Source: Leptonemataceae bacterium (lineage in GTDB: Bacteria; Spirochaetota; Leptospiria; Leptospirales; Leptonemataceae). Taken from it: DNA of 64,000 nt. Every line of letters starts with the position of its first letter. Position 1 is the first letter of the stretch. The stretch lies in NCBI GenBank assembly GCA_965207725.1, contig OZ242290.1, positions 861,025 through 925,024 on the forward strand, read 5' to 3'. The notes beneath the pieces were generated by a model. The model worked only from the letters and a program-made list of their open reading frames with translations. It was not told the origin of the DNA and made no database searches. Made by a program: the position numbers and the translations under genes. Below are positions 8,928 to 46,901 of the stretch, piece after piece.

Positions 8928-9131
8928 GAAAGTTAATATTGCCCTAGGCAGCAGAATTATGTCTACCAGTCATGCTGATACTGTATTTTTTGTCATATAG
9001 AATTTGTCTATTTTGTAAAGAGTCAAAGAAGTCCGCTGCTGGTATACGTTTTTATTTCAGTAGCTTTTTACAGGGGAATAGCTGAAGTCGACAATGTAAA
9101 TCGAAGATTCGATTACGGTTGAGCCAATGGC

Positions 9132-9716
9132 TCAAAAAAAACTTTTATAAAGGAACAGAACATTTTGCCAAACATTCAGAATAAACAAGACTATAGCGAG
9201 GGGAATCAAGAAAAAAATCATAGACATGAGGTTGTGTCCCCAAATGACTGCGTGTGATTTTTTCTTTGCTCGAGCATAGAGATCTACTGCTAAAAACTGA
9301 GCATAGACTAAACTTATCAGCAAAAAAATAATTCCTAGCCCCGGATGAAAGAAAAAGAATGGAAAACTTGCCCCCACACTGAGATGTGCTAATAATGAAA
9401 AATGATTGATTTTTTCTGCACGCTCACTGACCGGTGAACCAAAGTAGTACTGAACATAGTCGTGCGAACTTGCCAGCACCAAAGAAATCACCAGTAATCC
9501 ACAGGGGATTGCATAGTACTTCAAAGAAAAAAGCGAATAGTACATGGCGAATGGCGATGACAAGAGGAATGGCAAGATCAACAGATAGATCGGCAAATGG
9601 AGGCGCCAAATCACTTGATTTTTATGGAGACCATCCCATTTTTTAAGATCCTCTAAAAGATCATGAGGACGATAATACAGTTTTTCTAAGATTGCAATCG
9701 CCTGTCTTAAATTCAT
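9132..9716 (-). CDS. hypothetical polytopic membrane protein
   Basis: 194 aa with five or more hydrophobic helices; no recognisable catalytic motif. Confidence 0.45.
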   Translation of the reverse strand: MNLRQAIAILEKLYYRPHDLLEDLKKWDGLHKNQVIWRLHLPIYLLILPFLLSSPFAMYYSLFSLKYYAIPCGLLVISLVLASSHDYVQYYFGSPVSERAEKINHFSLLAHLSVGASFPFFFFHPGLGIIFLLISLVYAQFLAVDLYARAKKKSHAVIWGHNLMSMIFFLIPLAIVLFILNVWQNVLFLYKSFF

Positions 9717-9906
9717 GCAAAGTTCATTTTTTGTAATTCAGCTGAATGCTACAGCCCTCCGATCTCACCACCGCTTGCTGCTCTCATTGGATGATCGGTT
9801 ATTCTTTCTTAACCTACTCTTTAATCTCTTATTGAATCTGGGCATCATCGGAAATTCTTAAAATTAGAGCAACTCTTTTGCCTGCCCTCCCCATCAAAGA
9901 CAGAAA

Positions 9907-10443
9907 TTATTGCGATAGATGTTTGAGTGCGTCCTGATAATCTGGTTCGTCAGTTATTTCTGGCACAAGCTGAGCATAGCTGATCTCATCTCGATTATTT
10001 TTATTTTCTGAAATAAAAACTGCCCGGGCAGAAAGTCCGCTGAGCGGCCCGTTAGTCATCGCCACCCCTAAACCCTCCGCAACTCCTGAATTTCGATAAT
10101 GAGAGTATGCTTGAATTTGATCGATTTGGTGCTGATCAAAAAATCTTTTTTGTGCAAAGGGTAAATCTGCGGAAATCATAACTACGGTAAAATCGTTTGC
10201 AGAATCTGCTTCACGGATTTTTTTTATCTGTTCGTTGAATTTTTTTACTTCATTAGCACAAACGTCGGTGTCTACACTTGGTAGCGTGAGGATCATTTTT
10301 TTGCCTTGGATGTCCCCGAGTGAACTTTCTTTTAGATCAGGGGAAATCAAGGAATTATTTGGAAGAGAATCTCCAATTTCTGGGAAGTCTTCTGCCAATT
10401 CTACTTTTTCATTATGGTGGAGGGTTACTTGCTTTTTACTCAT
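9907..10443 (-). CDS. tpx: thiol peroxidase (atypical 2-Cys peroxiredoxin, Tpx)
   Basis: Tpx motifs LPSVDTDVCANEVKKFN, SADLPFAQKRF and GLSARAVFI; 178 aa. Confidence 0.8.
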   Translation of the reverse strand: MSKKQVTLHHNEKVELAEDFPEIGDSLPNNSLISPDLKESSLGDIQGKKMILTLPSVDTDVCANEVKKFNEQIKKIREADSANDFTVVMISADLPFAQKRFFDQHQIDQIQAYSHYRNSGVAEGLGVAMTNGPLSGLSARAVFISENKNNRDEISYAQLVPEITDEPDYQDALKHLSQ

Positions 10444-10554
10444 ACTTTTACACCCCTAACATCTACTGACACACTCTCCTGTCAACATTTTCTTAGCCAT
10501 TTTTGCTTGTGGAGGATTTTTTTTTTGAAGTTTCTCTTTACACATGAAGGAGCA

Positions 10555-10797
10555 TTATTGAAAAAACTCGCGAACCACTGCAGTTACATCACCAATGCCA
10601 ATCAACAAGAAAAGCCATGCGAGACGAAAATGGATCCGTTTTTTAAAGCGAGTTTGTTTATCTCCACGAAAATAGGAGATAATCATAAAAAGACTCCAAG
10701 CGGTCATGAGCAATCCGACTAAAGCCGTCAGCATTAAAGCGAATATTTGAAAAAATTGTGGAATCTCAATCATTTCTAGAGTCCATTCTATAAACAA
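10555..10797 (-). CDS. small hypothetical membrane protein (2 TM)
   Basis: 80-aa ORF with two hydrophobic helices. Orientation fits its neighbours, but there is no other support. Confidence 0.3.
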   Translation of the reverse strand: MFIEWTLEMIEIPQFFQIFALMLTALVGLLMTAWSLFMIISYFRGDKQTRFKKRIHFRLAWLFLLIGIGDVTAVVREFFQ

Positions 10798-11068
10798 AGC
10801 GGTGCAAAGTCGACTTTTGTCGATTTTGCCATATTCGCATTTGAGAAATCATCAGTATATTTGAATTTTTAGATGGGGTTCTATTTGGCAATTTTTTTCT
10901 CAGAAATCGACTCCGTTTCTAGTCAATGAGCCCGCCGACCTTTTGCGCTTGCCGTTATGAAGCAATATCGAATTGGCAGAATACTCTTTTGCCAGGAAGC
11001 TTCAAAAATCTGTTGGCTGATTTTGATTTTCTTATAAACTCGGTTCATATGTTGGATTTGCTAGATAG

Positions 11069-12076
11069 ATGAGGCGTATATTGTCTGGAATTCAACCGAG
11101 TGGAATTTTTCACTTGGGCAATTATTTTGGAATGATGCAGAGAATGATTGCCTATCAAAATCAAGAAGACTCTCCAGCCTCAGATGGTAAAAAAAATAAT
11201 CAACTGTTTGTGTTTATTGCCAATTATCACGCGCTTACTTTGAAGCCTGATCCAGAGAAATTGCAGCAACAAACGCTAGAAATGGCTGCTGATTACGTAG
11301 CTCTTGGGCTTGACCCGCAAAAAAGTATTTTCTGGGTGCAGAGTGATCTACCACAGATAGCCGAGCTCACTTGGATTTTGACTCACCATGCCAGCGTTTC
11401 ACGATTGGAGCTCGCTCACGGTTATAAAGATAAAGTTGCGCAGGGACAGCAGGCTACTGCCGGTCTGTTCACCTATCCGATTTTAATGACTGCTGATATT
11501 TTAGCCTTTGCTACCAATATTGTGCCAGTTGGCAAAGATCAAGCTCAACATCTTGAGATTTGCCGCGAAATTGCTCGTAGTTTTAATCATCTTTTTGGTA
11601 AAGTCTTTACTATCCCCCAAGCTGATATTTTACCCGACCAACAATTAGTTGTAGGAATTGATGGGCGGAAGATGTCCAAGAGCTACCAAAACATGATTTG
11701 TCCGTTAGCGGCAGAAAACCTACTCAAAAAGAGCATTATGAGCATTCGCACCGATTCTGCTCAGCTTCAGGATAAAAAAGATTCGAGCGAAACTCCTCTT
11801 TTTCAGATTTTCTCTCTGTTCGCATCTACAGCTGATGCCAAAGATCGATTGATTGAAAAGTTTAACCAGCAAGGAAGTAGCTATCAAAAAATAAAATTAG
11901 AACTATTTTCTTTGATCATGGATACTTTTGCTCCAGCACGAGCACGCCGGCAAAAAATCAGTAAACCAGAGATATTAGAAATTCTGGCCGATGGCAGCAA
12001 AAAAGCAAAAGAAGTCGCTCAGCCTATTTTAAAAAAATGTCGTGATGCCTGTGGAATTTCCTATCGCTCTGGGTAA
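11069..12076 (+). CDS. trpS: tryptophan--tRNA ligase
   Basis: HIGH-type motif GIFHLGNYFG, KMSKS motif RKMSKS, and the class I TrpRS length of 335 aa. Confidence 0.9.
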   Translation: MRRILSGIQPSGIFHLGNYFGMMQRMIAYQNQEDSPASDGKKNNQLFVFIANYHALTLKPDPEKLQQQTLEMAADYVALGLDPQKSIFWVQSDLPQIAELTWILTHHASVSRLELAHGYKDKVAQGQQATAGLFTYPILMTADILAFATNIVPVGKDQAQHLEICREIARSFNHLFGKVFTIPQADILPDQQLVVGIDGRKMSKSYQNMICPLAAENLLKKSIMSIRTDSAQLQDKKDSSETPLFQIFSLFASTADAKDRLIEKFNQQGSSYQKIKLELFSLIMDTFAPARARRQKISKPEILEILADGSKKAKEVAQPILKKCRDACGISYRSG

Positions 12077-34552: not shown

Positions 34553-36556
34553 ATGAGTTTTTCACAATTTCCTAAGAGTCCGAATAAGATTGATCCGATA
34601 ATCCCGAGCGCGGTAGCCTCGCGGACATCCCTAGTTTGGGAAGGTCGGAGTAAGCCAGCGGAATCGAAGAAAATAATTGATGAGGCGGCAAAATATATTT
34701 CAGAATATACGAAAATTAAATTGCCACCGGAGATCACAAAAGATCTGGACGTTATGGCCAGTCTTGAAGATAAAATATACAACTATGTGAATCAAGCTTA
34801 CGTGAACATGTTCAATCGTTATGCGATAACGGTTGAAGATGAGATGGTAAAGAAGGTTCGTGATTTTGTAGATAAAGAAGAGATAAAGAATTTAGCCCGC
34901 TATACGCCACGGGAAATCACTGAGATCCTTGATAAGGTTGGTGGTGCCGATAAGTTCAATACTGGTGAAGTTGAAAAATCAGTGGTGAATATGTATGGTC
35001 ACTTGCAAGGTCATATCCAAAGAGGTGTGTATGATCTAGAGGTAGAGACAAATGCGATTTTACGGCAGAAACAAGACGTTGGTTCGTTTGTCCGCGGGGA
35101 AAACGCCTATGCCATCGTAAAGTGTGCTTTTAAGGACAGTCGCGCTAAGCCAAAGACCGTTACTGATATTAAATTATCTGTAAATATTTTGGATTCTGAG
35201 TTGATCAGTCCTATTTTTCACTATCAGGTAACAGTTGAGCATTTGCTCAAAGAGCAATTGGCGTCACATATAACCTATCTGATTGATCGTGAAATTGAAA
35301 AATTAAAGGATGAAATTGTCGATGCTGGGAAACAAGAGATGTCTTCTGGTGAAGTTATGTTTGCGAAGATTAAGTCTACTGAGAGTTTTACGGATGACAA
35401 TGTCAGCGATCCAAACTCTAGGAGATATACAATTCTATCGAAAAAATTTATAGATAGAATTGAAGGATTGCGGGCAGAAATTGATCAGGATGAATATGAT
35501 CCACTTAATTTGCGAGAGCAAATTAAATCGATTATCGATTCTGAGAATATTCGTAATCGTGGCTTCAATACTGCAGTAAACACAATTACTTCGATATTGG
35601 ATAGCTCAAAATTGGGATATCAGTACTGCGATAACAAAAAGAATGCCCGTGAGGCAATCATCCGCGAATATGAGGATCAGAACGAAGATCATCTACCCGA
35701 TGAACGCTATCAGCTGAGATTGGTGTACTACGATCAAAATCAAATCCGCGACTTAAAACGGATATATGATCAAAGGATAAATGCATTTTTCCGCGAGGTT
35801 CAAGTGGTTTGGGACGTTGTTAATGCGCTTCATGAAAGAAGTAAGAGACGAGCGTTTGGCTTTCTCCCCAAGAAAATCACTGATTTTGAGGATCTTTGTA
35901 TGTCCATAATGCCAGCTCAATGGCGAAAAGAACGCAAGGAGCTAGCAGAAGATGAAGACGAATTGCAATGGCGCACACTTCAGTTCCGCGATCATTCGAG
36001 TACTTTTGTTGAGAAAAACAATCGCACTTATTCCACTGAGATTAAGAATAATGGTGATATGTTGAATCAAATGCGCAAGGATTTACAAAAGCTCTTTGGC
36101 TACCAAAATCCCATGGAAAGGGTATTGGTAGAGGAGAGATTAATGTTTCTTGAACACGAATTCAATGATTTCACCTACGAAGTCAATCCACATCATCTGC
36201 AGCCAGGAGTATTGCTGGACGTTGATATGACGACTACGAAACGTAAACAGTATATGATGCGGGCAATGGCAAATGTATTAAATGAATTCCTGTTTGGAAT
36301 TTCACAAGGTTTTGCTGATGCTGCCTTTGCTACATTCTCTCGAAGAAGATCTACGACGAGAGATACTGCCGACTATACTTTTACTGAAGTTCAAGAAGGA
36401 GAATCTGTGAGTAGCACTGCCTACGAGCAAAGAATGTCCTCTTTTTCCTCTGGTCAGAGTCAGACTATGGGTGGATCACAAAGTTCCGCAAATGTAACCC
36501 CAAGGTCGCTTAAGGATTCTAATCCAGATAAGGGTTCGGGTTTGCAAGAACTGTAA
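34553..36556 (+). CDS. hypothetical soluble protein, 667 aa (first gene of uncharacterised operon)
   Basis: Long ORF with a strong SD. There are no Walker or other catalytic motifs. The N-terminus is Pro-rich and the C-terminal tail (about 80 aa) is Ser/Thr/Gln-rich and low-complexity (RRRSTTRDTADYTFTEVQEGESVSSTAYEQRMSSFSSGQSQTMGGSQSS). Confidence 0.6.
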   Translation: MSFSQFPKSPNKIDPIIPSAVASRTSLVWEGRSKPAESKKIIDEAAKYISEYTKIKLPPEITKDLDVMASLEDKIYNYVNQAYVNMFNRYAITVEDEMVKKVRDFVDKEEIKNLARYTPREITEILDKVGGADKFNTGEVEKSVVNMYGHLQGHIQRGVYDLEVETNAILRQKQDVGSFVRGENAYAIVKCAFKDSRAKPKTVTDIKLSVNILDSELISPIFHYQVTVEHLLKEQLASHITYLIDREIEKLKDEIVDAGKQEMSSGEVMFAKIKSTESFTDDNVSDPNSRRYTILSKKFIDRIEGLRAEIDQDEYDPLNLREQIKSIIDSENIRNRGFNTAVNTITSILDSSKLGYQYCDNKKNAREAIIREYEDQNEDHLPDERYQLRLVYYDQNQIRDLKRIYDQRINAFFREVQVVWDVVNALHERSKRRAFGFLPKKITDFEDLCMSIMPAQWRKERKELAEDEDELQWRTLQFRDHSSTFVEKNNRTYSTEIKNNGDMLNQMRKDLQKLFGYQNPMERVLVEERLMFLEHEFNDFTYEVNPHHLQPGVLLDVDMTTTKRKQYMMRAMANVLNEFLFGISQGFADAAFATFSRRRSTTRDTADYTFTEVQEGESVSSTAYEQRMSSFSSGQSQTMGGSQSSANVTPRSLKDSNPDKGSGLQEL

Positions 36557-36748: not shown

Positions 36749-37729
36749 ATGATAGATAATGTAAAAGTTGATTTTAGTAACATTGGGCGAAAAAAATCTT
36801 ACAATACTGTCTTACGTCATATGTTGAACGTGACAGACATGGTCAACAGAGTAGGGAAGGGTGAAAATCTCGCAGAAATATTAAATGCTGCGCTTGAGGA
36901 AAAGAAGATAATGGAAGATCAGCTTCTTCCGTTGGTTTCATTGATTTTGGTGCAGAAGTACAACTATCAATATCGAGCCGAAAATTTGAGTATGGAATTC
37001 AATGACTTTGAATCTCTAGTGGCTATGTGTCAAAAATGCGAGTCGTTAGATTTTGTGATCACCTATTTTCATCCGAATTCTAAAGTATGCGTTTTGAATC
37101 CTAAGAAAATTGGCCTTTGGCAGGAGCATGTGCAGAGTCTGCACAAAAACGAGCTGTTGGTGGTCTATGTCCAGAATAAAAGGAAAGATAAGGAATTGAA
37201 CCAACGAGCACTAAAGATTTTATTTGATTTTTTTAATGGCCAAGATATCAAGGAACTTGATACGGATTTCACATCGCATGTAACAGATGCTGCTACTTGG
37301 GAAGCCCCTAACAAGAGCGAAGGAGACCCTGCAAGCGTTGCTGTTCTTACGGAAAAAAAAGTATCCACCCAAACTGCTCCATCAACAGCAAAGCAAAAGA
37401 AAAATTTGACTCCACAATATTCAGTTCAGGTAACCAATGAACTATTTCATAATGGAAACGTGGAGGCTTGGAAAAATATTATTGCATCGTATCAGGATCG
37501 ATATCCAAGTTGCCGAGTCTTAGTCTACTACGAAGGTGAACTAATTCAAGATTTAAATGCCCTCTTTAAGTGGGGTAAAGTGAAACATGGTGGAGTCCTC
37601 TTGTTTCAGGTTTTGGGAGAAGATATTAGTGACGTGAGACGTTTACAAAAATATTTGTTTGAAGGTGCTTCCTCACGTTATGAAGCATTTCTTAAGCAAG
37701 ACATTTATCGCCATTTAAATCTCTTTTAA
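36749..37729 (+). CDS. hypothetical protein, 326 aa
   Basis: Same-strand ORF with no recognisable motifs; part of the cluster. Confidence 0.5.
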   Translation: MIDNVKVDFSNIGRKKSYNTVLRHMLNVTDMVNRVGKGENLAEILNAALEEKKIMEDQLLPLVSLILVQKYNYQYRAENLSMEFNDFESLVAMCQKCESLDFVITYFHPNSKVCVLNPKKIGLWQEHVQSLHKNELLVVYVQNKRKDKELNQRALKILFDFFNGQDIKELDTDFTSHVTDAATWEAPNKSEGDPASVAVLTEKKVSTQTAPSTAKQKKNLTPQYSVQVTNELFHNGNVEAWKNIIASYQDRYPSCRVLVYYEGELIQDLNALFKWGKVKHGGVLLFQVLGEDISDVRRLQKYLFEGASSRYEAFLKQDIYRHLNLF

Positions 37730-37762: not shown

Positions 37763-38485
37763 ATGTTTTCCAAGTACTTTTCGCAGCAACAAACAAGTAT
37801 TCTTAAATCAAAAAAGAATACTCCGGTCAAAAAGCCAAATCAGGCTAGCAAGACAAAAAATCTCAAAGCATACCGATCTTTTTTTTCGTTTTTGAAGGAT
37901 CACTTGCCTTATGAGTATGCGTTAGCGACTGGCAAGGTCCGCAATCATCAAAAAATATTGAGTAAAAACTGTGATCTACTTGTATATAAGAAATGGTGTG
38001 ATGCCTATTTAGAATTGAGCGGGGGCTATGTTATCGTCGATGATATATACGCTTTTATGACTGTGGAGATGGCCGCATCTCCTGCGAGCTTACGTGCTCA
38101 TGTAAACTTGACCAGTGCCATGAAAAATCTGAAGTCTAGTGAAATTAACGCAGAAAAAAAGCAAGAGGAATTAATTCCTATTTATTCGGTTTATTTTTCT
38201 TACTCATCTTTACAACAATTACCAGATGTCAAAGAGGCACTATTGTCCTTATGTGAAGAAAAAAAAATTCCAATAAATGAAAGGCCGGATATTCTCTGTA
38301 TTTTAGATCAGGGAATTTTGGTTCGAGACTGGGAGAAAGGAGGGGATTACCGGGGGCTACTTACGGAAAATGAAACTCTTATGTGGTTTTATATTTTATT
38401 TTTGGAGCACATTGATGTAAAAGGTGGTTTGAGTATTAATTTGCGGAATTTTGTCAAAAGCAACAGGGTCTATGATGAATGCTGA
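37763..38485 (+). CDS. hypothetical protein, 240 aa
   Basis: Same-strand ORF 33 nt after the previous gene, with a Lys-rich N-terminus and no recognisable motifs. Confidence 0.5.
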   Translation: MFSKYFSQQQTSILKSKKNTPVKKPNQASKTKNLKAYRSFFSFLKDHLPYEYALATGKVRNHQKILSKNCDLLVYKKWCDAYLELSGGYVIVDDIYAFMTVEMAASPASLRAHVNLTSAMKNLKSSEINAEKKQEELIPIYSVYFSYSSLQQLPDVKEALLSLCEEKKIPINERPDILCILDQGILVRDWEKGGDYRGLLTENETLMWFYILFLEHIDVKGGLSINLRNFVKSNRVYDEC

Positions 38486-38604: not shown

Positions 38605-39753
38605 ATGAATATTATCAAAAACAAAATGAGCAAACCAAGAGGACTTGCGAGAACTTTGTCTAGAGTTACCATGAAATCTTTTGTTTTGCTTTTGTTTCTT
38701 GTAGCTTCTTGCCAGAGTGATTCTCCTCGAGATTTTATTTTATCGATTGATACCTCTGGTTCTATGTTTCAGGGCAATTCACCGGATGAGAAGATGATCA
38801 ACCGAGTAAAAGATGCGATAGAGCCTTTGGTTGATCTTACAAAAAAGGATGACCGAGTTTACTTAATATCTTTCGATGATGGTGTGCAAACTCATCTTGA
38901 TTTTGAAATTCAAGACGAAAGCGATAAGCAGATGATCATTGAAACGGTCCGATCCTTTGATGCCAAGGGAGCGTATACTGATATGGGGAGCATGGTTCTT
39001 TCTATACGCGAATATTTAATCGAGAGACATGAGGAGGATCGAGACACATTTGTGATTATTCTCTCAGATGGGATTGATGATCCTAATCCGCAACGGGAAT
39101 CAAGTTTTCAAATTCAGCTAGAAGATTTGGCGATAGATGGGAATAAACCGATTGGATCCTTTGAGGACACTTACATTTATTATTTGAGTGTGGGACTCTT
39201 GGTAGACGAAGGATTGATCAAGGATTTAGAAGGTATTGCCCCAGATCAAGTTCGGACCATTGAGGATGGAGATCCTTCCTCAAGTATTGCATCTTTGATT
39301 AATGATTTGGAGAGCAAAAGAAGGATACAGTATATCGAAAATTTAGTAAAGGAATACGATATGGAAATTGGAATTCTCATCATGCTCATCATTTTATTAC
39401 TTTTTATTCGGATACAGATTACTCGAAACAAGGTAAAGGGCAAATTCTTTTATTATAATCGGAAATTGGGTAGCTATACTGAGAAGTCATTTGTCTTAGA
39501 TCGATTAAAGAAGCATCGAGTGGTCATTGGCTCCAAGATAGGCGTAGATTTGCTCATCCGTGGATTGAAACTCAAAAAGCCGTTGGTACTGAGAGCAGTG
39601 AACCTAGAAGATGGATTCGGTTTAATCGCAAGTAAAAAGAGTAGAGGTCTCATATCGTATAGTCAGCAAAAGGAAGAGGGAAAAATTTCGATTGATGATA
39701 GATTCTCGATTGGAGATTTTGATTTTAGATATGCTAAGAAAAAAAGAAATTAG
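38605..39753 (+). CDS. lipoprotein with periplasmic von Willebrand factor A domain, one TM helix and a cytoplasmic FHA-like domain
   Basis: Lipobox LVASC; the likely true start is MKSFVLLL at 38671. VWA MIDAS motif ILSIDTSGSM...ISFDDG...SDGIDD. TM helix IGILIMLIILLLFIRI. The C-terminal FHA-like pattern is HRVVIGSKIGVDLLIRG...GLISYS...FSIGDFDFRY. Confidence 0.6.
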   Translation: MNIIKNKMSKPRGLARTLSRVTMKSFVLLLFLVASCQSDSPRDFILSIDTSGSMFQGNSPDEKMINRVKDAIEPLVDLTKKDDRVYLISFDDGVQTHLDFEIQDESDKQMIIETVRSFDAKGAYTDMGSMVLSIREYLIERHEEDRDTFVIILSDGIDDPNPQRESSFQIQLEDLAIDGNKPIGSFEDTYIYYLSVGLLVDEGLIKDLEGIAPDQVRTIEDGDPSSSIASLINDLESKRRIQYIENLVKEYDMEIGILIMLIILLLFIRIQITRNKVKGKFFYYNRKLGSYTEKSFVLDRLKKHRVVIGSKIGVDLLIRGLKLKKPLVLRAVNLEDGFGLIASKKSRGLISYSQQKEEGKISIDDRFSIGDFDFRYAKKKRN

Positions 39754-42277
39754 AGAACAATTAGATCACGAATTACGTGGTTTGCGAGCCAATGAGCGCG
39801 TATTCTGTCTAGATAAAAACCTTTTTCTCGTCTATACTGGTACCAATAGTTCTGATTTACAGCCATTTATTCGCGTGGGTAGCGGTGAAAAAATACATCG
39901 CAATTCAGCGGCATGGATTGGGCATGTAATCCTGTCCGAACAGGATCCAGTCAATCTCGGGCGAGAAATCGAATGGATTGAACATGCGATTGAGAAAGGC
40001 TTTGCGTCAATCAAATATGTAGGCAGTAAAAAACGTCTTGATCAAATTTATAATATCACAGGAATGCCTCAGCTTGAAGATAAGGGGCGCAATGTTCCGA
40101 TCCAAATTTTGCCGTATGGAAAAATTAACGGTGAGAAAGACAAGATACAAGTATATGCGATTCAAGAAAGAGAGAATTTTTCAATACAAATAAATAATAG
40201 AAGAGTCTTTGACTATAATGATCGAGTCAAAAATAAATCTTGGTCAGTTGAAACCGAGTACAAATTGTTTGCAGAAGCATTGCAGAAGATGCCAAGAACC
40301 AAGGCCAGTGACCCACAAGATATAAGTTTTGTCTGGGTTAAAGGAAGAAAATTTGATAAATTGTTGCCGACACTCTATTGGAATTGTCTTGGCAAGGGAT
40401 TTATTTTCGAGCCATCATCTGGCTTTCATCAAGACCTATTTGAATGTCACATTGATCCCACGAATGTAGTCGGATATTCTGCGAGCGATGGATTGACATC
40501 AGGGTTAAATAACGGCCTTTTATATGCTCATCAAGAGCATCAAGAAATATGTGTGAATATCGCCGATGAAAATCAGTTTGTTGGTCTTAAAAAAATATAT
40601 AATTCAGCTAACCTACGGCAAATGACCGCTGGTGTGGCGCTTCCATTTGCCAAAAGCATGTTTTTGAGCAAGTCGAGACGAGGAAACTATAGTGCATTGA
40701 GTTGGCGTTTTTCTGCTCAGAGTGATTACTTTGTGAACGTACTTTTCCCTAGCATGCGAAAATCTGCGAAGAAGCAAATAGAGAATATTCGTGCCCCGTA
40801 TGATGTCGAAATTCAGAAAATTGATACCCATGATGATTTTAAGCTGTCAACCGCAAATCTGCAACTTCAGTATCCCGGAGCAATCGACCAAGAGACCTTT
40901 GAGCTAAAAAAAATTAGGGGAAAAAACTTCCCACTGATTCCGAATACCGAGTATATCTTCCATCAAGCAGAGAATCTTAATGATATTATGGATGTGGCAC
41001 TGCGTTGTTTCCGTGACACAGAGTATTTAAGTAGCCTAACAAAGATCTATCAGTTTCATCAGGTCGCGGAACTCAAGTCTGAGACCGATTATTTGCGTCA
41101 ATCGCTTGAGGAGCTATTGTATATCCACAGATCAATCGAGAATAGTCAGACAACTGAGTTTGTCAATTTGGCTAGTTTTGTTCAAGTGTTAAAATATACG
41201 GTAACTTTTGGTAACTATACCAAAGAGCAGATGTCTCGCTATAATAAATTAGAAAAGACAATATCTTTGACCAAGTATCGCAACAGCGATTTGCTCGGGT
41301 TACAAAGCAAAGAGGTGACTATTCAGATCTTATCTTTTGGCAATAGGGAAAAAAAATCCATATTATTCATCGATAATCTGCAAAAAGATAAACTCCCTTG
41401 GCACTTGCCAAGAGAAATACTGACATCTCGGCAGCAAGAAAAACAATACGGTAAAAAATTGATTTTATGGCAAAAAATTATCGGCAGAAAGAAAGAATAC
41501 GAAGAATACTTACCGATTCTCCAAGTGCTTGAGAAAATGGTCAATCAACAACAATTTTTCAAGGAACAATGGATTGCTTTTCGAAAGTTAGTAGAACGTT
41601 TGGGAACGAGCGTGGTTGGAGAAAGTATTTTTGGTGAGCGGCCCTACTTAAAACAGAGCAAAAAATCTTGGTCAGATTTGGTATCGAACGGTTTTAATCT
41701 AGGTTCTTTGAAAGACGTTCTGATAGACTTAAAAGAGAAAATAATGAACCCTAAGGGCTTGATCATTTTTGCCTTGCTAGCATTGAGTTCTTTTCTTCTG
41801 GTGATAATGGTCAGCAGATACTCACCATCAACTCCAGAATTCATTGGGTTGGTTGACGTTGGTAATTTTCAGGAAAATGAGAATATTCCCGGAGCAGAAG
41901 AGATTGAGATCACTGATGCTGAAATCTTTGAATATGCGAATATTTTGGCTACGCAAAATAATTTTCAATCGTTAGAAGCATCGATAGACAACAATGAAAA
42001 TGCGAAAAGAAATCCGAATTTGATCTTTCCAAGTGACTTATTGAGGTTACCGGATCAACGATTGACACGAGTAAAATCTGGCAGTTATATCTGGGAAATT
42101 GCCCGTAACCAGTATCAACAGGATTTTGCTCGCTTATTATTGCTCGAAAAAGAGATCAGTGAAAATGGCAGCAAAAAAGATATCGAGAAATATATTGCTT
42201 GGGTCAAACGATTAGCTGTTACTAAAAAAATGAAAGAAGTTTTGCTACGATTACAGCCAACTATTGAATCCCTATAG
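39692..42277 (+). CDS. hypothetical bitopic membrane protein, 861 aa: large cytoplasmic N-domain, single TM, periplasmic C-terminal LysM-like domain
   Basis: TM helix GLIIFALLALSSFLLVIMVS at about residue 690. The C-terminal segment FEYANILATQNNFQSLEASIDNNENAKRNPNLIFPSDLLRLP fits the LysM pattern (...L...N.l.nPnlI.pGd.L.lP). The gene overlaps the upstream gene by about 60 nt, suggesting translational coupling. Confidence 0.55.
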   Translation: MMIDSRLEILILDMLRKKEIREQLDHELRGLRANERVFCLDKNLFLVYTGTNSSDLQPFIRVGSGEKIHRNSAAWIGHVILSEQDPVNLGREIEWIEHAIEKGFASIKYVGSKKRLDQIYNITGMPQLEDKGRNVPIQILPYGKINGEKDKIQVYAIQERENFSIQINNRRVFDYNDRVKNKSWSVETEYKLFAEALQKMPRTKASDPQDISFVWVKGRKFDKLLPTLYWNCLGKGFIFEPSSGFHQDLFECHIDPTNVVGYSASDGLTSGLNNGLLYAHQEHQEICVNIADENQFVGLKKIYNSANLRQMTAGVALPFAKSMFLSKSRRGNYSALSWRFSAQSDYFVNVLFPSMRKSAKKQIENIRAPYDVEIQKIDTHDDFKLSTANLQLQYPGAIDQETFELKKIRGKNFPLIPNTEYIFHQAENLNDIMDVALRCFRDTEYLSSLTKIYQFHQVAELKSETDYLRQSLEELLYIHRSIENSQTTEFVNLASFVQVLKYTVTFGNYTKEQMSRYNKLEKTISLTKYRNSDLLGLQSKEVTIQILSFGNREKKSILFIDNLQKDKLPWHLPREILTSRQQEKQYGKKLILWQKIIGRKKEYEEYLPILQVLEKMVNQQQFFKEQWIAFRKLVERLGTSVVGESIFGERPYLKQSKKSWSDLVSNGFNLGSLKDVLIDLKEKIMNPKGLIIFALLALSSFLLVIMVSRYSPSTPEFIGLVDVGNFQENENIPGAEEIEITDAEIFEYANILATQNNFQSLEASIDNNENAKRNPNLIFPSDLLRLPDQRLTRVKSGSYIWEIARNQYQQDFARLLLLEKEISENGSKKDIEKYIAWVKRLAVTKKMKEVLLRLQPTIESL

Positions 42278-42405: not shown

Positions 42406-42816
42406 TTATTTGTCCAGATTTTTCTTGTGTATTTCTTTGTCAGACTTGGTTGCAAGGAGGGTAAGAATATCACCGATGAATTTATGATGCTCATTCAAGA
42501 TCATTTCTAGCTGTTTTTTTTTATCCACTTCAATAAGAGTTTTTACTAGTTTTCCTAGATTTTTGCGGATACTGGCATCTAAATAAATTGGATCATCATC
42601 AATTTTATTATCGGCCTCCGAGGTTTGCTGAATACTACCCAGTAATTGTTCAATAGATCGCTTGCGAGCACCTTTACCAAGATTACTGATTTGTTGACTC
42701 AATGATTCTGGATTTTGCGAATCTTTGTTGCTCAAATTTTCTTTGGGCATTTTTGGCCTCTGTTCCCTCATCTCGGTGATCAATGATTTCAAGCTATCTG
42801 CGTTCAGATTGTCCAT
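42406..42816 (-). CDS. hypothetical small charged protein (136 aa)
   Basis: ORF only, no motifs. It lies antisense between the cluster and the GGDEF gene. Confidence 0.35.
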   Translation of the reverse strand: MDNLNADSLKSLITEMREQRPKMPKENLSNKDSQNPESLSQQISNLGKGARKRSIEQLLGSIQQTSEADNKIDDDPIYLDASIRKNLGKLVKTLIEVDKKKQLEMILNEHHKFIGDILTLLATKSDKEIHKKNLDK

Positions 42817-42972: not shown

Positions 42973-44073
42973 ATGAGTGCAGAAAGTACAGTATCACTGT
43001 TGAAAAAAGAGAATCAGAGATTAAAAGCACAACATAAGAGAATGCTCAAGATCATAAATCTGAGTGGGTCATTGACGAGCACTCATCACATTGACGTTAT
43101 TTTAGATGCTGTCTTGGAAAAAACCCAAGAGATCTGTGAAGCGGAGGCAAGTAGTCTTTGGATGGTCGACGAAGATAGGGGGGATATCTATCTGTATATG
43201 ACGGGGGAACAAAATGAATTCGCAAAAGTCTTGCAGACGACCCGTCTAAAAAAAGGACAGGGAATTTGTGGTTGGGTCGTGCAAAAAAATAAACCGGTCC
43301 TCGTTGCTGATTGCCAGTCCGATTCGCGATTTCAAGGAGAGATCGATAAAAAGACAAAATTCATTAGTCGAACAATGATTTGTGTCCCATTGGTTGTTAG
43401 AGAAAATGTGATTGGTGCCTTGCAAATACTCAACAAAAAAAAGAATAAGACATTTGATAAAACCGATCTAACGATTACGACGATTTTAGGTCATCAGGTA
43501 GCAATTGCCGTCCAAAATGCTCGTCTGAACCATTCGGTAACCGTCGATGCAGATACGAATCTTTATCGGCGAGCTTATTTTCGAGAAGTTTTAAATGCAG
43601 AATTTAATATAGCGAAAAAGAAGATGCAAAATCTTGCAGTCCTTATGTGTGACATTGATCATTTTAAAAAAGTCAATGATACGTACGGTCATCAATCGGG
43701 CGATATCGCTATCTTGCATTTGTCGAATATTTTGCACCAGACTCTTCATAAATTGGGGAGTCGAGATATTGCTGGTCGATACGGAGGTGAGGAGTTTTGT
43801 GCTTTACTGATTGGATATTCATTGGAGACAGTGAAGGATATTGCGGAAAATTTACGGATTCAAATTGAACAATCGCAAATCCCTTTGAATAATGGAAAAA
43901 CGATTCAGATTACTGCATCAATTGGCATTGCACATTTTCCTGTCCATCAAGAGTATTTGACTTCTGCTGATGATTTTATTGCCCTTGCCGATGAAGCCTT
44001 ATTCCTCTGCAAAAGTAAAGGGAGAAATTGTATTTCCTCTTTCAATGCGCAACAGACAAAAGTTCTTAAATAA
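42973..44073 (+). CDS. GAF-GGDEF diguanylate cyclase
   Basis: N-terminal GAF domain (about 170 aa), then a GGDEF domain with an intact active site RYGGEEF and the DxFK/VND motifs (DIDHFKKVNDTYGH). Confidence 0.85.
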   Translation: MSAESTVSLLKKENQRLKAQHKRMLKIINLSGSLTSTHHIDVILDAVLEKTQEICEAEASSLWMVDEDRGDIYLYMTGEQNEFAKVLQTTRLKKGQGICGWVVQKNKPVLVADCQSDSRFQGEIDKKTKFISRTMICVPLVVRENVIGALQILNKKKNKTFDKTDLTITTILGHQVAIAVQNARLNHSVTVDADTNLYRRAYFREVLNAEFNIAKKKMQNLAVLMCDIDHFKKVNDTYGHQSGDIAILHLSNILHQTLHKLGSRDIAGRYGGEEFCALLIGYSLETVKDIAENLRIQIEQSQIPLNNGKTIQITASIGIAHFPVHQEYLTSADDFIALADEALFLCKSKGRNCISSFNAQQTKVLK

Positions 44074-44270: not shown

Positions 44271-46901
44271 ATGATTGTTCATGAATTTAGCCAAGAGGGA
44301 TGCACTCAAGACAAAGATATCTGGCGGCGGTGTGGTAGTCGTGGCAGAAGTGTATTTGAATTAGCTTCTTCGAAACTTCCTATTGTACCGGGATTTATTA
44401 TTGATGCGAGGACATGTGCAAAATTGAGTGAATATGATGATTTGGATTTTATATGGGCAAATGTTGATAGAATTGGCAAAAGATTGGGCCGACGCTTTGG
44501 TGATGTCTCCAACCCATTGCTCTTAAAACTAGTCTGTAGTTCAAACTTGCTGATGTCTGCTCATCCATCGGTGTTTAATGTGGGGCTCTCGCCAACCACT
44601 TTGCCAGGATTAACTAAATTAATGGATGCTGATGAAGATAAGTCTTGGTTTGAGTACTGTTATCTTTTGCAAACGAGCGGAGAAAAGGTATATAATATTG
44701 ATCCTCAAGAATTTGAACAAATTTCGAATCAGTATACCGGAGTACTCGAAAGTAGGATGGAGATCGTTGCAAAAATGCGAAAGCTGGTAGATGAAGAAAA
44801 ATTGGCAGATGATCCGTATAAACAATTGGAGACATTAATCAAGAATTTAGCAAAGAATTATTATGATCCTGATCTTGATATGGATGATAATGTCGCAATT
44901 TTGGTGCAAGGAATGGTCTTCGCTAATATGGATAGTCAGTCGATCGTAGGACATTACTGTAATCGCGATATCGTTACTGGTAAAAAAAAGCCAAGTGGTG
45001 AATTTGCGAGAAATCAATATACGCTGTTCAAGGGAACCGGTGAAAATATTGAAAATTTAGAAGTTAAATACCTAGATACTTTGCAAAAAATTGGAGATTT
45101 GGTTGAGAGAAAGTTCAAAGACATCTATGAGATCAAATTTATCGTCGAATCTGGAATATTATGGCTGCTTAGTCAAACTCGACAAGAAAAAAAATCAACC
45201 CAAGCTCATCTTCGCATCTTGTTAGATCTTTACCGTGATGGTGCAATAACTGATAAATGGTTGATCCAAGAAGTCAACCCAAGTTACTTAGCGAGTTTAT
45301 TGTATCCCATTATTGATCCGCTCACTTTAGGTAATTTAGCAAAAACGGAAGGAGGTCTTTCTGGATCACCGGGTGCTGCCGTTGGCAGAGTATTCTTTGA
45401 TGCAGAGCGATTAATGGATGTTTATCGTGAATCGATACAAAAAGGTGAAGATACTCGATTAATTTTATGTGTTAAATCAAGTTTTGCCGAGGATGTAAAA
45501 GCAATTGAAATCGGGCAAGGGGTTATTGCAGTTGAGGGTGGATATTCTTCTCATGCTCCTGTGGTGGCACGCTCAATGGGTAAAGTCGCGATGGTTAATC
45601 CAGAAATAAAAATTGATGGCAAATCCTTTGAACTCAATGGGCAAATAGTAAAAGAAGGTGATTATATTACTTTAGATGTACCAATCTACAAAAAACCCAC
45701 GATATATTTTGGTGAAGCAGGGCTCATCAGTCCTGACATTGAGAAAAATGGCCTCTTAGAGCTAACTGAAATTTCCAAGAAATTTATAAAAGATGATTTT
45801 GTTGTGCGAGCTAATGCAGACTTACCTCGTGATGCAAAACTTTCCAAAAAAATGGGAGCTTTTGGGATTGGGCTGTGCCGGACTGAGCATATGTTTTTTT
45901 CCGAAGATCGAATTCAATTTTTTCGCCAAATGATCTTGTCCGAGAATACAGAACAAAGGATTGACTTTTTAAAAAAACTAGAAGCGATACAGATTCAAGA
46001 TTTTTACGAACTCTTTAAAATATCCCATCCAGATCGGGTGACAATCCGTCTCTTGGATGCGCCATTACATGAATTTCTGCCCCGCAATGATCAAGTTCTT
46101 AAAGAGTACCTAGATCATTTAAAAAAACAGGATTTAGAAGTAGATGCAGAGCAGATTAAACAGAGAATTGAGCACCTGTCGGAATTTAATCCGATGTTAG
46201 GACATCGGGGTTGTCGAGTTGGTGTAACCTATCCTGAGATTTATGAAATGCAAGTACGAGCGATCTTTATTGCGGCGTGTCGCTTGAAGGCAGAAAAAAT
46301 GAATGTTGTCCCCGAAATTTTGGTTCCGATCATTATGAATAGTCATGAGATGAGAATGATCCGCAATGGTAAAAAAATCACTGGCAAAGTTGTCAAAGGG
46401 ATTACTCAAATCAGCGAGGAAATATTTGAAAAGGAAAATCAATCGGTCGAATATCTTGTCGGCTCAATGGTCGAACTTCCTGCTGCGGCGCTCGCCTCTG
46501 ATGAGATCGCAAAATATGCCGATTTCATTAGTTATGGAACCAATGATCTAACTCAAACAACTTTTGGCCTTTCTCGAGATGATGCAAATTCCTTTTTTCC
46601 AGATTATACTGAATATGATTTATTATCAGATAATCCTTTTAGAGTTTTAGGGTCACAAGTGAAAGAATTGATTGATATTAGTGTAATGCGAGCACGCTTG
46701 ACTAGACCGGATATTAAAATTGGTCTTTGTGGCGAGCATGGAGCCGATCCAGAGAATATACTATTCTGCTATAATATAGGTTTGAATTATGTGTCATGTT
46801 CAGCATACAGTGTGCCAATTGCTTTGTTAACAATTTCACAATTAAATATCAAATTGGAAGAAGCAAAGGCTGGAGAGCAACAGCGACCATTGGTAGCTTG
46901 A
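44271..46901 (+). CDS. ppdK: pyruvate, phosphate dikinase
   Basis: 876 aa. Phospho-histidine region GGYSSHAPVVARSMGKVAMV, a PEP-utilising TIM-barrel region (GLCRTEHMFF, LCGEHGADPENI), and an N-terminal ATP-grasp domain. Confidence 0.9.
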   Translation: MIVHEFSQEGCTQDKDIWRRCGSRGRSVFELASSKLPIVPGFIIDARTCAKLSEYDDLDFIWANVDRIGKRLGRRFGDVSNPLLLKLVCSSNLLMSAHPSVFNVGLSPTTLPGLTKLMDADEDKSWFEYCYLLQTSGEKVYNIDPQEFEQISNQYTGVLESRMEIVAKMRKLVDEEKLADDPYKQLETLIKNLAKNYYDPDLDMDDNVAILVQGMVFANMDSQSIVGHYCNRDIVTGKKKPSGEFARNQYTLFKGTGENIENLEVKYLDTLQKIGDLVERKFKDIYEIKFIVESGILWLLSQTRQEKKSTQAHLRILLDLYRDGAITDKWLIQEVNPSYLASLLYPIIDPLTLGNLAKTEGGLSGSPGAAVGRVFFDAERLMDVYRESIQKGEDTRLILCVKSSFAEDVKAIEIGQGVIAVEGGYSSHAPVVARSMGKVAMVNPEIKIDGKSFELNGQIVKEGDYITLDVPIYKKPTIYFGEAGLISPDIEKNGLLELTEISKKFIKDDFVVRANADLPRDAKLSKKMGAFGIGLCRTEHMFFSEDRIQFFRQMILSENTEQRIDFLKKLEAIQIQDFYELFKISHPDRVTIRLLDAPLHEFLPRNDQVLKEYLDHLKKQDLEVDAEQIKQRIEHLSEFNPMLGHRGCRVGVTYPEIYEMQVRAIFIAACRLKAEKMNVVPEILVPIIMNSHEMRMIRNGKKITGKVVKGITQISEEIFEKENQSVEYLVGSMVELPAAALASDEIAKYADFISYGTNDLTQTTFGLSRDDANSFFPDYTEYDLLSDNPFRVLGSQVKELIDISVMRARLTRPDIKIGLCGEHGADPENILFCYNIGLNYVSCSAYSVPIALLTISQLNIKLEEAKAGEQQRPLVA

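Follow-up and report, generated by a model that had tools for sequence, protein, structure and literature searches.

A spirochaete VWA protein with a single transmembrane helix and a predicted FHA-fold domain is encoded at the cfpA locus

Introduction

CfpA filaments form an intermediate-filament-like cytoskeleton in spirochaetes. These cytoplasmic filaments run parallel to the flagella, just under the cytoplasmic membrane (PMC13398306), and the loss of cfpA in Treponema denticola leads to chromosome condensation, filamentation and loss of virulence (PMC3398590). A tomography paper cited in PMC13398306 reports "novel bridging and anchoring components" in its title. Our literature search found no description of the genes around cfpA and no named membrane anchor of the filaments.

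Several described proteins resemble the one reported here in part of their layout. Two proteins, P0014 and P0015, carry an extracytoplasmic MIDAS-containing VWA domain, a single transmembrane (TM) helix and a C-terminal cytoplasmic domain of the FHA fold. They are arranged as signal peptide-VWA-Big_7-TM-FHA where the FHA domain is canonical (PF00498) and keeps the GR...SxxH...NG signature, and P0015 has a PP2C gene and four Ser/Thr kinase (Pkinase) genes as neighbours. Eukaryotic integrins, VWA/I-domain proteins that connect to the cytoskeleton across the membrane, and the integrin-like adhesin CglD of Myxococcus combine a MIDAS VWA ectodomain with one TM helix and a short cytoplasmic part that adjoins a cytoskeletal system. 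An FHA and a VWA domain are also found as a pair in Sulfolobus ArnA (FHA) and ArnB (VWA), which are two separate cytoplasmic proteins with a phosphorylation-dependent interaction and no transmembrane fusion. In addition, membrane-proximal and phospho-independent FHA domains are present in YscD/PscD, MxiG and PrgH of the type III secretion system (T3SS), in EssC/YukB of the T7SS and in GltG of the Myxococcus gliding system, and that of GltG docks cytoplasmic scaffolds (PMC11761067).

Here we describe a gene of a Leptonemataceae bacterium that joins a lipoprotein-type signal, a VWA domain, a TM helix and a predicted FHA-fold domain in one protein and that lies close to cfpA. The window referred to below is the whole stretch of 64,000 nucleotides that was analysed (contig OZ242290.1).

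Results

The VWA–FHA gene corresponds exactly to an open reading frame (Table 1) with a product of 382 aa, and further in-frame ATG starts are found at 38626, which is used in the public call P0001, and at 38671. The protein consists of four parts, and the lipoprotein-VWA-TM-FHA architecture given in a preliminary description of this DNA is real. It is not a chance open reading frame because 127 homologous C-terminal domains can be aligned and their core residues are conserved. The family is small, with 99 clusters among 1.84 billion (1.84e9) representatives, and has a fixed architecture. Public records label the protein merely as a "VWA domain-containing protein". The structure models were built on an alignment of eight sequences and the full-length AF2 model has a pLDDT of only 70.

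Table 1. Coordinates of the VWA–FHA gene, its parts and the neighbouring cluster genes in the window
Feature	Position	Strand	Remarks
cfpA, cytoplasmic filament protein A	34553..36556	+	conserved cluster anchor; NCBIfam NF040882, 836 bits
TP_0747_N-family gene (orf326)	36749..37729	+	directly downstream of cfpA in 70/80 loci
orf240, PD-(D/E)xK-like (DUF6602 / NucC-like)	37763..38485	+	next gene upstream of the VWA gene, whichever the gene order
Gene for the lipoprotein-signal / VWA / TM / FHA-fold protein	38605..39753	+	orthologues in 28 cfpA-anchored and 40 family-anchored metagenome loci
Signal peptide with lipobox L32-V-A-S-C36	38605..38712	+	Cys36 codon 38710-38712; putative cleavage and lipidation
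VWA domain, aa 42-220, probably periplasmic	38728..39264	+	MIDAS D49-T-S51-G-S53 (nt 38749-38763), T125, D155
Helical stalk (aa 224-252) running into TM helix (about aa 253-273)	39274..39423	+	AF2 helix, hydropathy, charge flanks
FHA-fold domain (predicted), aa 279-376, probably cytoplasmic	39439..39732	+	basic; without canonical pThr-binding residues
orf861, second single-pass membrane protein	39692..42277	+	TM aa 687-710; type-A clusters only

The lipobox (LVAS followed by C36) is preceded by a basic n-region and then a hydrophobic h-region, and the Cys36 column was observed to be at least 90% conserved in 29 orthologues. Across the family, 78 of 94 members have a lipobox-like Cys with A, S or G favoured at the -1 position. 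When the loci are separated by gene order (types A and B, described below), the lipid-anchor Cys is present in all ten type-A loci but only in 13 of 27 type-B loci. The lipid anchor is thus limited to a subfamily and is therefore dispensable for the family as a whole. The N-terminus is expected to be exported. In this subfamily, signal peptidase II would probably remove the signal peptide and leave Cys36 to be lipidated. The combination of this lipobox with an internal TM helix holds, and the resulting topology, which the preliminary description had called odd, has precedents. A lipobox Cys and TM helices occur together in the cytoplasmic-membrane proteins CyoA of E. coli and QoxA, CtaC and SpoIIIJ/YqjG of B. 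subtilis, although these proteins and their functions are unrelated to the one described here.

The alpha/beta Rossmann-like fold of VWA domains was found in the second part of the protein. The search for VWA profiles that had been suggested earlier gave significant matches, where both VWA_2 (PF13519; 45.5 bits, cutoff 27) and VWA (PF00092; 41.7 bits, cutoff 23.8) score above their curated thresholds. The MIDAS (DxSxS...T...D) is complete and its residues D49, S51, S53, T125 and D155 are invariant among the 29 orthologues. The VWA domain is acidic and would lie against the inner membrane on its periplasmic side. Its ligand probably bears a carboxylate and would be held by way of a divalent cation, in the manner of integrin I domains. 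A DUF58 match was sub-threshold and is owed to the VWA fold. No MoxR AAA+ ATPase, DUF58 or other Bat genes were found around the VWA gene (window 26.5-50 kb), and the gene thus lacks the operon context of BatA/BatB-type or MoxR-associated VWA proteins.

The stalk and the TM helix form one continuous helix in the AF2 model (aa 224-274) and the Kyte-Doolittle maximum, 2.66, lies at about aa 247-275. Every one of the 28 full-length orthologues from cfpA loci has a matching TM segment, as do almost all full-length members in the databases. The charges on the N-side and the C-side of the TM helix are -2 and +6 in the window protein, against family means of +0.24 and +2.57. This asymmetry supports a single-pass inner-membrane protein with its VWA domain in the periplasm, its FHA-like domain in the cytoplasm and one TM helix between them; the sidedness proposed earlier is borne out by the single helix and its more positive C-side flank. 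Only about six residues separate Cys36 from the first VWA strand. In the VWA fold, as in integrin I domains, the N- and C-termini lie on the same face. With such a short spacer and both termini on one face, the two anchors are therefore expected in the inner membrane, with the MIDAS pointing outward. Tethering to both membranes, one of the two options raised before, is therefore unlikely while the other, attachment to the inner-membrane face, is the arrangement that we infer.

The C-terminal domain is predicted to adopt the beta-sandwich FHA fold, an assignment that comes from the predicted structure. ArnA and ArnB are among the structural matches (8s05_B, 5a8j; 5a8i). PF00498 did not match the window protein at E<=1 or any of 29 members at E<=10. 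A sequence-profile search of the PDB with this domain returned 0 matches at E<=10, and phmmer with a canonical FHA query recovered no FHA protein from the window or from the 80 loci. There was no signal in hhalign against a single canonical FHA sequence, and against an alignment of five canonical FHA sequences the match was marginal (E 0.0022, probability 13%), with the "IG" and "GD.F.iG" blocks aligned. Weak matches to Yop-YscD_cpl (PF16697), a non-canonical FHA profile from inner-membrane ring proteins of the T3SS, were observed in 7 of the 29 members (best E 0.0015) and none in the window protein itself. There are no T3SS genes nearby, and the FHA-fold domain is C-terminal to the TM helix, not N-terminal as in the T3SS proteins. 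No secretion genes, T3SS included, or gliding genes lie near the VWA–FHA gene (window 26.5-50 kb).

Our alignment of 127 domains shows that position 310, which follows an invariant Gly, is Arg in 18% of the sequences. In the loops 320-326 and 343-349 none of the columns conserves Ser, Asn or His, whose shares peak at 20%, 18% and 4%, respectively. In canonical FHA domains phosphothreonine is bound by an Arg after the Gly of beta3, by Ser-x-x-His in the beta4-5 loop and by an Asn in the beta6-7 loop. With all of these unconserved, phosphopeptide binding would seem unlikely from the sequences. At two positions, G364 (Asp) and N371 (Asp), the window protein differs from the family consensus. Of the FHA-like domain claimed previously, the fold stands as a prediction; a significant profile match, whose absence the preliminary description had itself named as refuting, is missing, and so are the canonical residues. 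The domain is basic (median pI 9.6, net charge +7) and CfpA is acidic (pI 5.5, net charge -14). The basic charge could, however, be a mere effect of membrane proximity.

These observations bear on whether the protein is a transmembrane receptor for phosphorylation-dependent signalling, with the periplasmic VWA domain as ligand sensor and the cytoplasmic FHA domain as the binding site for a phosphothreonine protein in a circuit of Ser/Thr kinase and phosphatase. Such a role is consistent with the predicted FHA fold and with P0014 and P0015, where the same layout comes with a canonical FHA domain and with PP2C and kinase neighbours, and the Ser-rich C-terminal tail of CfpA is, speculatively, phosphorylatable in principle. 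The missing PF00498 match speaks against it, as does the loss of the conserved Arg and of the loop Ser, His and Asn. Furthermore, no kinase or phosphatase gene was found in the window at 26.5-50 kb, about 12 kb either side of the gene, or among the called genes of two independently found contigs (L082 and L083). We therefore consider a signalling receptor very unlikely.

The genomic context, which was absent from the preliminary description, is the most informative feature of this gene. The VWA–FHA gene is present in 28 of 29 Leptospirales-type cfpA-anchored loci, the exception being locus L031 from a Leptospira biflexa MAG. Conversely, cfpA is present in all 33 informative metagenome loci that were retrieved through the VWA–FHA family itself, and L082 and L083 also carry it. 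The family is thus found essentially only in the cfpA context. Two gene orders were observed for the pair made up of orf240 and the VWA/TM/FHA gene. In type A the pair comes after cfpA and the TP0747-like gene, and in type B it directly precedes cfpA. The contig with the Brevinematia relative P0009 ends 100 nt upstream of the gene and is uninformative on its context. The earliest possible start of orf861 overlaps the end of the VWA gene, and an overlap of 4-56 nt was seen in 23 of 27 loci. PF27497 is the precomputed Pfam label on the orf326 homologues in L082 and L083. PADLOC models of anti-phage defence systems gave matches to orf240, all with generic PD-(D/E)xK models, and none to the VWA–FHA protein, orf326, orf861 or orf136. 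In a scan of the cluster for promoters and terminators, promoter-like sites did not exceed those in shuffled sequences and no convincing internal terminator was found.

The protein could instead be a VWA protein of a generic kind, periplasmic and metal-dependent, that is Bat-like or serves in adhesion or as a chaperone and is next to cfpA through inherited synteny without any function in the filaments. This is unlikely, as the linkage outlasts the rearrangement of the pair of orf240 and the VWA/TM/FHA gene to the other side of cfpA, and cfpA is present in every one of the 33 loci that were retrieved independently of it. The family is, in addition, essentially confined to this context and has no MoxR, DUF58 or Bat neighbours, as described above.

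A GAF-GGDEF cyclase gene is conserved downstream of the cluster, which brings up a c-di-GMP or nucleoid module. The FHA-fold domain would then recruit or regulate this cyclase, as might be thought from the FHA-GGDEF protein DgcB, or would act with Orf240 on DNA as a link between envelope and chromosome. However, the GGDEF gene is absent from the 27 type-B clusters, in the window a gene on the opposite strand separates it from the cluster, and the FHA domain of DgcB is a canonical pThr-binding one according to the title of entry 6hc1. Nothing connects the FHA-fold domain to nucleotides or to DNA, and we regard both forms of this module as highly improbable.

Of 37 other spirochaete loci, 30 also have a VWA gene directly upstream of cfpA. 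The VWA protein encoded next to cfpA in Treponema proper is short, soluble and periplasmic with neither a TM helix nor a cytoplasmic domain, and a transmembrane link through the VWA–FHA protein is therefore not universal for CfpA filaments. Long VWA-TM forms are present beside cfpA in Spirochaetales (for example at 8465-9937, minus strand, of locus L040); their cytoplasmic tails of about 100 aa show no similarity to the FHA-fold domain by HMM or hhalign and no Pfam signal, and a shared FHA-fold domain was rejected for these tails. By position and description, the VWA–FHA protein can be compared with TP0750 (WP_010882195) of T. pallidum, a secreted periplasmic VWA protein encoded two genes from cfpA (TP0748). 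TP0750 differs in being a non-lipoprotein of 224 aa that has no TM helix or cytoplasmic domain. The Treponema MAG loci contain a short signal-peptide and VWA gene directly upstream of cfpA. We do not assert that it is an orthologue of TP0750, since the gene that follows codes for an N-terminally anchored protein of about 490 aa, unlike the lipoprotein TP0751.

Discussion

The layout of the VWA–FHA protein is real, and it is not unique as the preliminary description of an uncommon fusion might suggest, because P0014 and P0015 share it with a canonical FHA domain. The cfpA-linked family differs from these two proteins in having no GR...SxxH...NG signature and no PP2C or kinase neighbours, and in having a lipobox and a tie to cfpA. 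What is new is the cfpA linkage of the VWA–FHA family, whereas the VWA-TM-FHA layout itself was already known. The C-terminal domain resembles the membrane-proximal FHA domains of YscD, MxiG, PrgH, EssC and GltG. The order of the domains is reversed here, with the N-terminus in the periplasm and the C-terminus in the cytoplasm, a VWA domain takes the place of periplasmic ring-building or TonB-like domains, and the sequence similarity is under the family thresholds. The likeness to integrins and CglD is an analogy of working principle only; homology is limited to the VWA fold, the coupling to a cytoskeleton is hypothetical, and the protein would be in the inner membrane facing the periplasm and not the outside.

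From the architecture and the gene linkage, we propose that the protein acts across the membrane as an integrin-like connector or anchor, with the CfpA filament ribbon or a protein associated with CfpA at one end and a periplasmic partner at the other, and give this reading a probability of roughly 45%. In this arrangement the stalk and the single TM helix would lead directly into the small basic FHA-fold domain, which has no phosphothreonine pocket. This domain is most likely a phospho-independent docking module like those of the secretion and gliding proteins above. The protein would then couple the sub-membrane CfpA ribbon, or a protein associated with it, to the partner in the periplasm. 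The gene linkage alone gives no mechanism and physical contact with CfpA is a proposal.

In a more specific form, which we hold to be rather unlikely, the cytoplasmic filaments of spirochaetes would here have their first identified membrane anchor. The degenerate FHA domain would grip the CfpA ribbon, either directly or through the TP0747-like protein or Orf240, and the MIDAS would grip an envelope component so that the ribbon is kept in register with periplasmic structures such as the flagellar bundle.

The family spans the membrane with a ligand-binding ectodomain and a docking-type cytoplasmic domain and is adjacent to cfpA in every informative locus retrieved through it, and on these grounds is a concrete candidate for the missing connection between filament and membrane. 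Three further conserved cluster genes share this candidacy, namely the TP0747-like gene, the PD-(D/E)xK-like orf240 and the gene for the bitopic Orf861. The C-terminal domain also represents a divergent FHA-fold family, one that goes unrecognised by current profile libraries. If the more specific form is true, the VWA proteins encoded next to cfpA in treponemes, perhaps with TP0750 among them, would be housekeeping factors that connect the cytoskeleton with the envelope and not host-interaction factors.

Association of the family with the cytoplasmic-filament gene cluster

Proteins that share the C-terminal FHA-fold domain of the window protein (the product of the VWA/TM/FHA gene) were found to be constantly associated with the cytoplasmic-filament (cfpA) gene cluster and this is our main new finding; no paper describing the association was found in the literature. 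A direct protein search with the window protein returned only two near-identical sequences and therefore CfpA was taken as a synteny anchor, through which 80 loci were fetched. Its cfpA gene shows the window to be spirochaete DNA, and the nearest CfpA matches are Leptospirales MAGs (Leptonemataceae and Leptospiraceae, 66-75% identity). The VWA/TM/FHA gene was observed in 28 of the 29 Leptospirales-type cfpA loci with enough sequence, the exception being L031, and these 28 loci encode full-length orthologues (23-32% identity) in the common gene order cfpA, orf326, orf240, VWA/TM/FHA gene, orf861 and GAF-GGDEF. L031 is the sole Leptospirales-type cfpA locus with full flanks in which the gene is absent (within 10 kb); an orf861-like match is present there. 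Contigs reached via the database proteins P0008 and P0005 carry the same cluster, with cfpA labelled PF27473 (CfpA_C) and orf326 placed in TP_0747_N (PF27497) by precomputed Pfam labels.

As a test independent of cfpA, 48 metagenome loci were fetched through the protein family itself. The C-terminal domain is encoded in 40 of them; cfpA is adjacent in 33 and the contigs of the other seven end exactly where cfpA is expected, so that linkage is found in 33/33 informative loci. Two gene orders were observed. Type A is the order of the window: cfpA is followed by the TP0747-like gene (orf326), orf240, the VWA/TM/FHA gene, orf861 and the GGDEF gene; the MIDAS reads DTSGS, and 10/10 loci have the lipobox Cys. 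In type B, orf240 and the VWA/TM/FHA gene are followed, after a gap of 163-422 nt, by cfpA and the TP0747-like gene, and the MIDAS is mostly DTSLS with a lipobox-like Cys in 13/27. The pair of orf240 and the VWA/TM/FHA gene has swapped sides of cfpA yet remained adjacent, which speaks for selection on this linkage rather than for synteny that was simply inherited.

Across 1.84 billion representative proteins, an exhaustive search with a C-terminal-domain profile (E<=1e-3) gave only 99 clusters. Nearly all family proteins are 340-440 aa long, with a MIDAS-bearing VWA domain, one TM helix and then the domain at the extreme C-terminus, and are publicly named 'VWA domain-containing protein' and nothing more; shorter entries seem to be fragments, and a few proteins exceed this range: P0063, P0075 (609 aa), P0078 (581), P0100 (904), P0101 (784) and P0116 (627). 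In P0073 (1592 aa) only a sub-segment of the domain was matched, repeated six times. P0073 and the last five of the longer proteins may represent other architectures built on this domain. It is unlikely that the window protein is a generic VWA protein whose cfpA linkage is without functional meaning, as the linkage survives rearrangement and the family distribution is narrow.

Table. Coordinates of genes in the window and in comparison loci
Sequence	Feature	Position	Strand	Remarks
Window	cfpA	34553..36556	+	NCBIfam NF040882, 836 bits; immediately upstream of cluster
Window	orf326	36749-37729	+	homologues in L082 and L083 carry PF27497 (TP_0747_N)
Window	orf240	37763-38485	+	PADLOC PD_DExK 2.5e-10, NucC-like effector 3.7e-7; Pfam DUF6602 2.8e-5, below threshold
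Window	VWA/TM/FHA gene	38605..39753	+	ORF, exact bounds; 382 aa
Window	orf861	39692-42277	+	single-pass membrane protein, TM aa 687-710
Window	small ORF	42406-42816	-	136 aa; between orf861 and GGDEF gene; no family match
Window	GAF-GGDEF diguanylate cyclase gene	42973-44073	+	downstream of cluster
Window	pyruvate phosphate dikinase-like gene	44271-46901	+	downstream of cluster
L031	cfpA	10001-11983		Leptospira biflexa MAG
L040	Spirochaetales VWA-TM gene	8465-9937	-	divergent from cfpA
L054	Spirochaetales VWA-TM gene	8467-9867	-	divergent from cfpA
L056	Spirochaetales VWA-TM gene	8470-9939	-	divergent from cfpA
L059	Spirochaetales VWA-TM gene	8469-9971	-	divergent from cfpA
L060	Spirochaetales VWA-TM gene	8402-9895	-	divergent from cfpA
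L044	in Treponema-type VWA and ~490-aa pair	7713-9233	-
L039	in Treponema-type VWA and ~490-aa pair	7651-9129	-
L041, L043, L079	Treponema-type VWA and ~490-aa pair

Neighbouring genes

The orf326 gene follows cfpA in 70 of the 80 loci across spirochaete orders, which points to cfpA and the TP0747-like gene as the ancestral core pair; orf326 itself had no match in the searched Pfam copy. A PD-(D/E)xK nuclease-fold protein is encoded by orf240. In both gene orders, nearly every locus that retains the upstream flank has orf240 as the gene directly preceding the VWA/TM/FHA gene. The orf861 gene is confined to type-A clusters and has no Pfam or NCBIfam matches. The first possible start of its homologues overlaps the end of the VWA/TM/FHA gene by 4-56 nt in 23/27 type-A loci, suggesting translational coupling of the two genes. 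The periplasmic C-terminal part of Orf861 (...NPNLIFPSDLLRLP...SGSYIWEIARNQY...) is LysM-like by eye, without profile support. Weak homologues of the 136-aa ORF occupy the corresponding place in 17 loci.

The same GGDEF and dikinase-like genes follow the cluster in the independent type-A contigs L082, L083, L088, L089, L102, L123 and L125; both are absent downstream of type-B clusters. A cfpA mutant shows chromosome condensation (PMC3398590). The reading of the family as a c-di-GMP or nucleoid module is very improbable because type-B clusters are without GGDEF, although a PD-(D/E)xK-like neighbour is constant.

VWA genes beside cfpA in other spirochaetes

Of 37 other spirochaete loci, 30 have a VWA gene on the opposite strand as the immediate upstream neighbour of cfpA. 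Several Spirochaetales loci encode a signal peptide, VWA domain, middle domain, TM helix and beta-rich cytoplasmic tail of ~100 aa; this design matches that of the window protein, with no detectable sequence similarity between the tails and its C-terminal domain. In Treponema-type loci, the cfpA-adjacent gene encodes a short protein (~200 aa) with a signal peptide and VWA domain. It overlaps a downstream gene, whose ~490-aa product is membrane-anchored at its N-terminus (MKR...hydrophobic). This two-gene arrangement, which is unlike the reported T. pallidum pair tp0750-tp0751, may split functions that are fused elsewhere. In T. pallidum, where cfpA corresponds to TP0748, a periplasmic VWA protein that is not a lipoprotein (TP0750, 224 aa) is a plausible candidate for orthology.

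Membrane topology of the window protein

Alternative in-frame ATG starts are found at 38626 and 38671, and one public gene call (P0001, 375 aa, 100% identity) uses the start at 38626. In the N-terminus, MNIIKNKMSKPRGLARTLSRVTMKSFVLLLFLVAS followed by CQSDS, a basic n-region and a hydrophobic h-region precede the lipobox L-V-A-S-C36. The h-region ends in Cys in at least 90% of aligned orthologues, in agreement with the lipobox of the preliminary description, and 78/94 family members have a lipobox-like Cys, usually preceded at -1 by A, S or G. Its VWA domain was likewise recovered by Pfam above gathering thresholds (VWA_2 1.3e-11, VWA 1.9e-10, aa 45-164), and MIDAS residues D49, S51, S53, T125 and D155 are invariant in the orthologue alignments.

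One very hydrophobic segment (Kyte-Doolittle 2.1-3.7) occupies the same position in 28/28 full-length orthologues. Net charge over the 15 residues on each side of this TM helix is -2 before and +6 after in the window protein, and averages +0.24 and +2.57 in 102 family members. By the positive-inside rule, the VWA domain is predicted to be periplasmic and the C-terminal domain cytoplasmic, as had been proposed. Exactly one TM helix separates the two domains, which therefore lie on opposite sides irrespective of cleavage, lipidation or retention of the N-terminal signal; a plain signal-anchor, earlier taken to place both on the same side, would not do so.

Cys36 and the first VWA strand are only ~6 residues apart, and a VWA fold has its two termini on the same face. 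We therefore infer that lipid and TM helix are both in the inner membrane with the MIDAS face toward the periplasm; the suggested tether to both membranes, which would reach across to the outer membrane, is unlikely. The topology is unusual, as had been remarked, but has precedents among lipoproteins with additional TM helices (CyoA, QoxA, CtaC and SpoIIIJ). Taken alone, this structural and topological description is very probably correct.

A divergent predicted FHA fold

The C-terminal domain (~105 aa) has the conserved consensus G.L.YYE...L.KL....IG...G...RI..LG....LK....G...LKP......F..QK..GLIS.GD.F..GNY.FEY. Its earlier assignment to FHA is right at the level of fold: Yop-YscD_cpl (FHA clan) was matched weakly by 7/29 members (best E 0.0015), and hhalign against a small set of aligned canonical FHA sequences gave E 0.0022, with the 'IG' block opposite canonical 'GR' and 'GlIs.GD.F.iGN' opposite 'l..GDei.iG'. 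Pfam gave no FHA match to the window protein even at E<=1. Conservation was scored over 127 aligned domains, where conservation falls on structural columns (G279, L281, Y283, L298, G309, I318, G364, D365, F367, N371, F374 and Y376). The canonical-Arg position after G309 holds Arg in 18%, Ser in 33% and Lys in 13%, and the loops expected to bear Ser-x-x-His and Asn reach per-column maxima of Ser 20%, Asn 18% and His 4%. Residues 364 and 371 (window 39694-39717), in 'GD.F.iGN', the most conserved block, are Asp in the window protein and in P0002 (95% identical), in place of the family residues Gly364 (94%) and Asn371 (76%).

The fusion had been called uncommon, but the layout also occurs in P0014 and P0015 (signal peptide, VWA, Big_7, TM and FHA), which match PF00498 with the textbook GR...SRHH...NG...GD signature. 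The P0015 gene directly adjoins a PP2C gene and four protein-kinase genes and therefore the general layout occurs elsewhere as a phospho-signalling receptor. A phospho-dependent receptor is nevertheless highly doubtful for the window protein, given the loss of the phosphothreonine-binding residues across the 127 domains, the cfpA-linked context and the absence of Ser/Thr kinase, PP2C, MoxR and DUF58 genes at 26.5-50 kb of the window. Judging from these residues, the domain does not appear to be a canonical phosphothreonine reader and the family is probably a derived variant of the layout with its phospho-chemistry lost. The component domains, the layout and dual membrane anchoring were already known; the divergent FHA-fold family, unrecognised by current profile libraries, and its fusion to a lipoprotein-type VWA ectodomain are new.

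Proposed role

Membrane-proximal FHA domains of YscD, MxiG and PrgH are phospho-independent docking modules, and MIDAS VWA domains bind a ligand carboxylate via a divalent cation. A tomography study reportedly concerns, by its title, 'novel bridging and anchoring components'. The C-terminal domain is strongly basic (median pI 9.6, net charge +7) and CfpA is acidic (pI 5.5). Phospho-independent FHA docking has been proposed for GltG of Myxococcus (PMC11761067), and cytoplasmic filaments run parallel to the periplasmic flagella, immediately under the cytoplasmic membrane (PMC13398306). Our tentative reading, with a probability of about 0.45, is that the window protein would act as a transmembrane connector, where the basic FHA-fold domain would dock either to the acidic ribbon of CfpA or to a partner encoded in the cluster, and the VWA domain would hold a periplasmic ligand, possibly the Orf861 periplasmic tail in type-A organisms.
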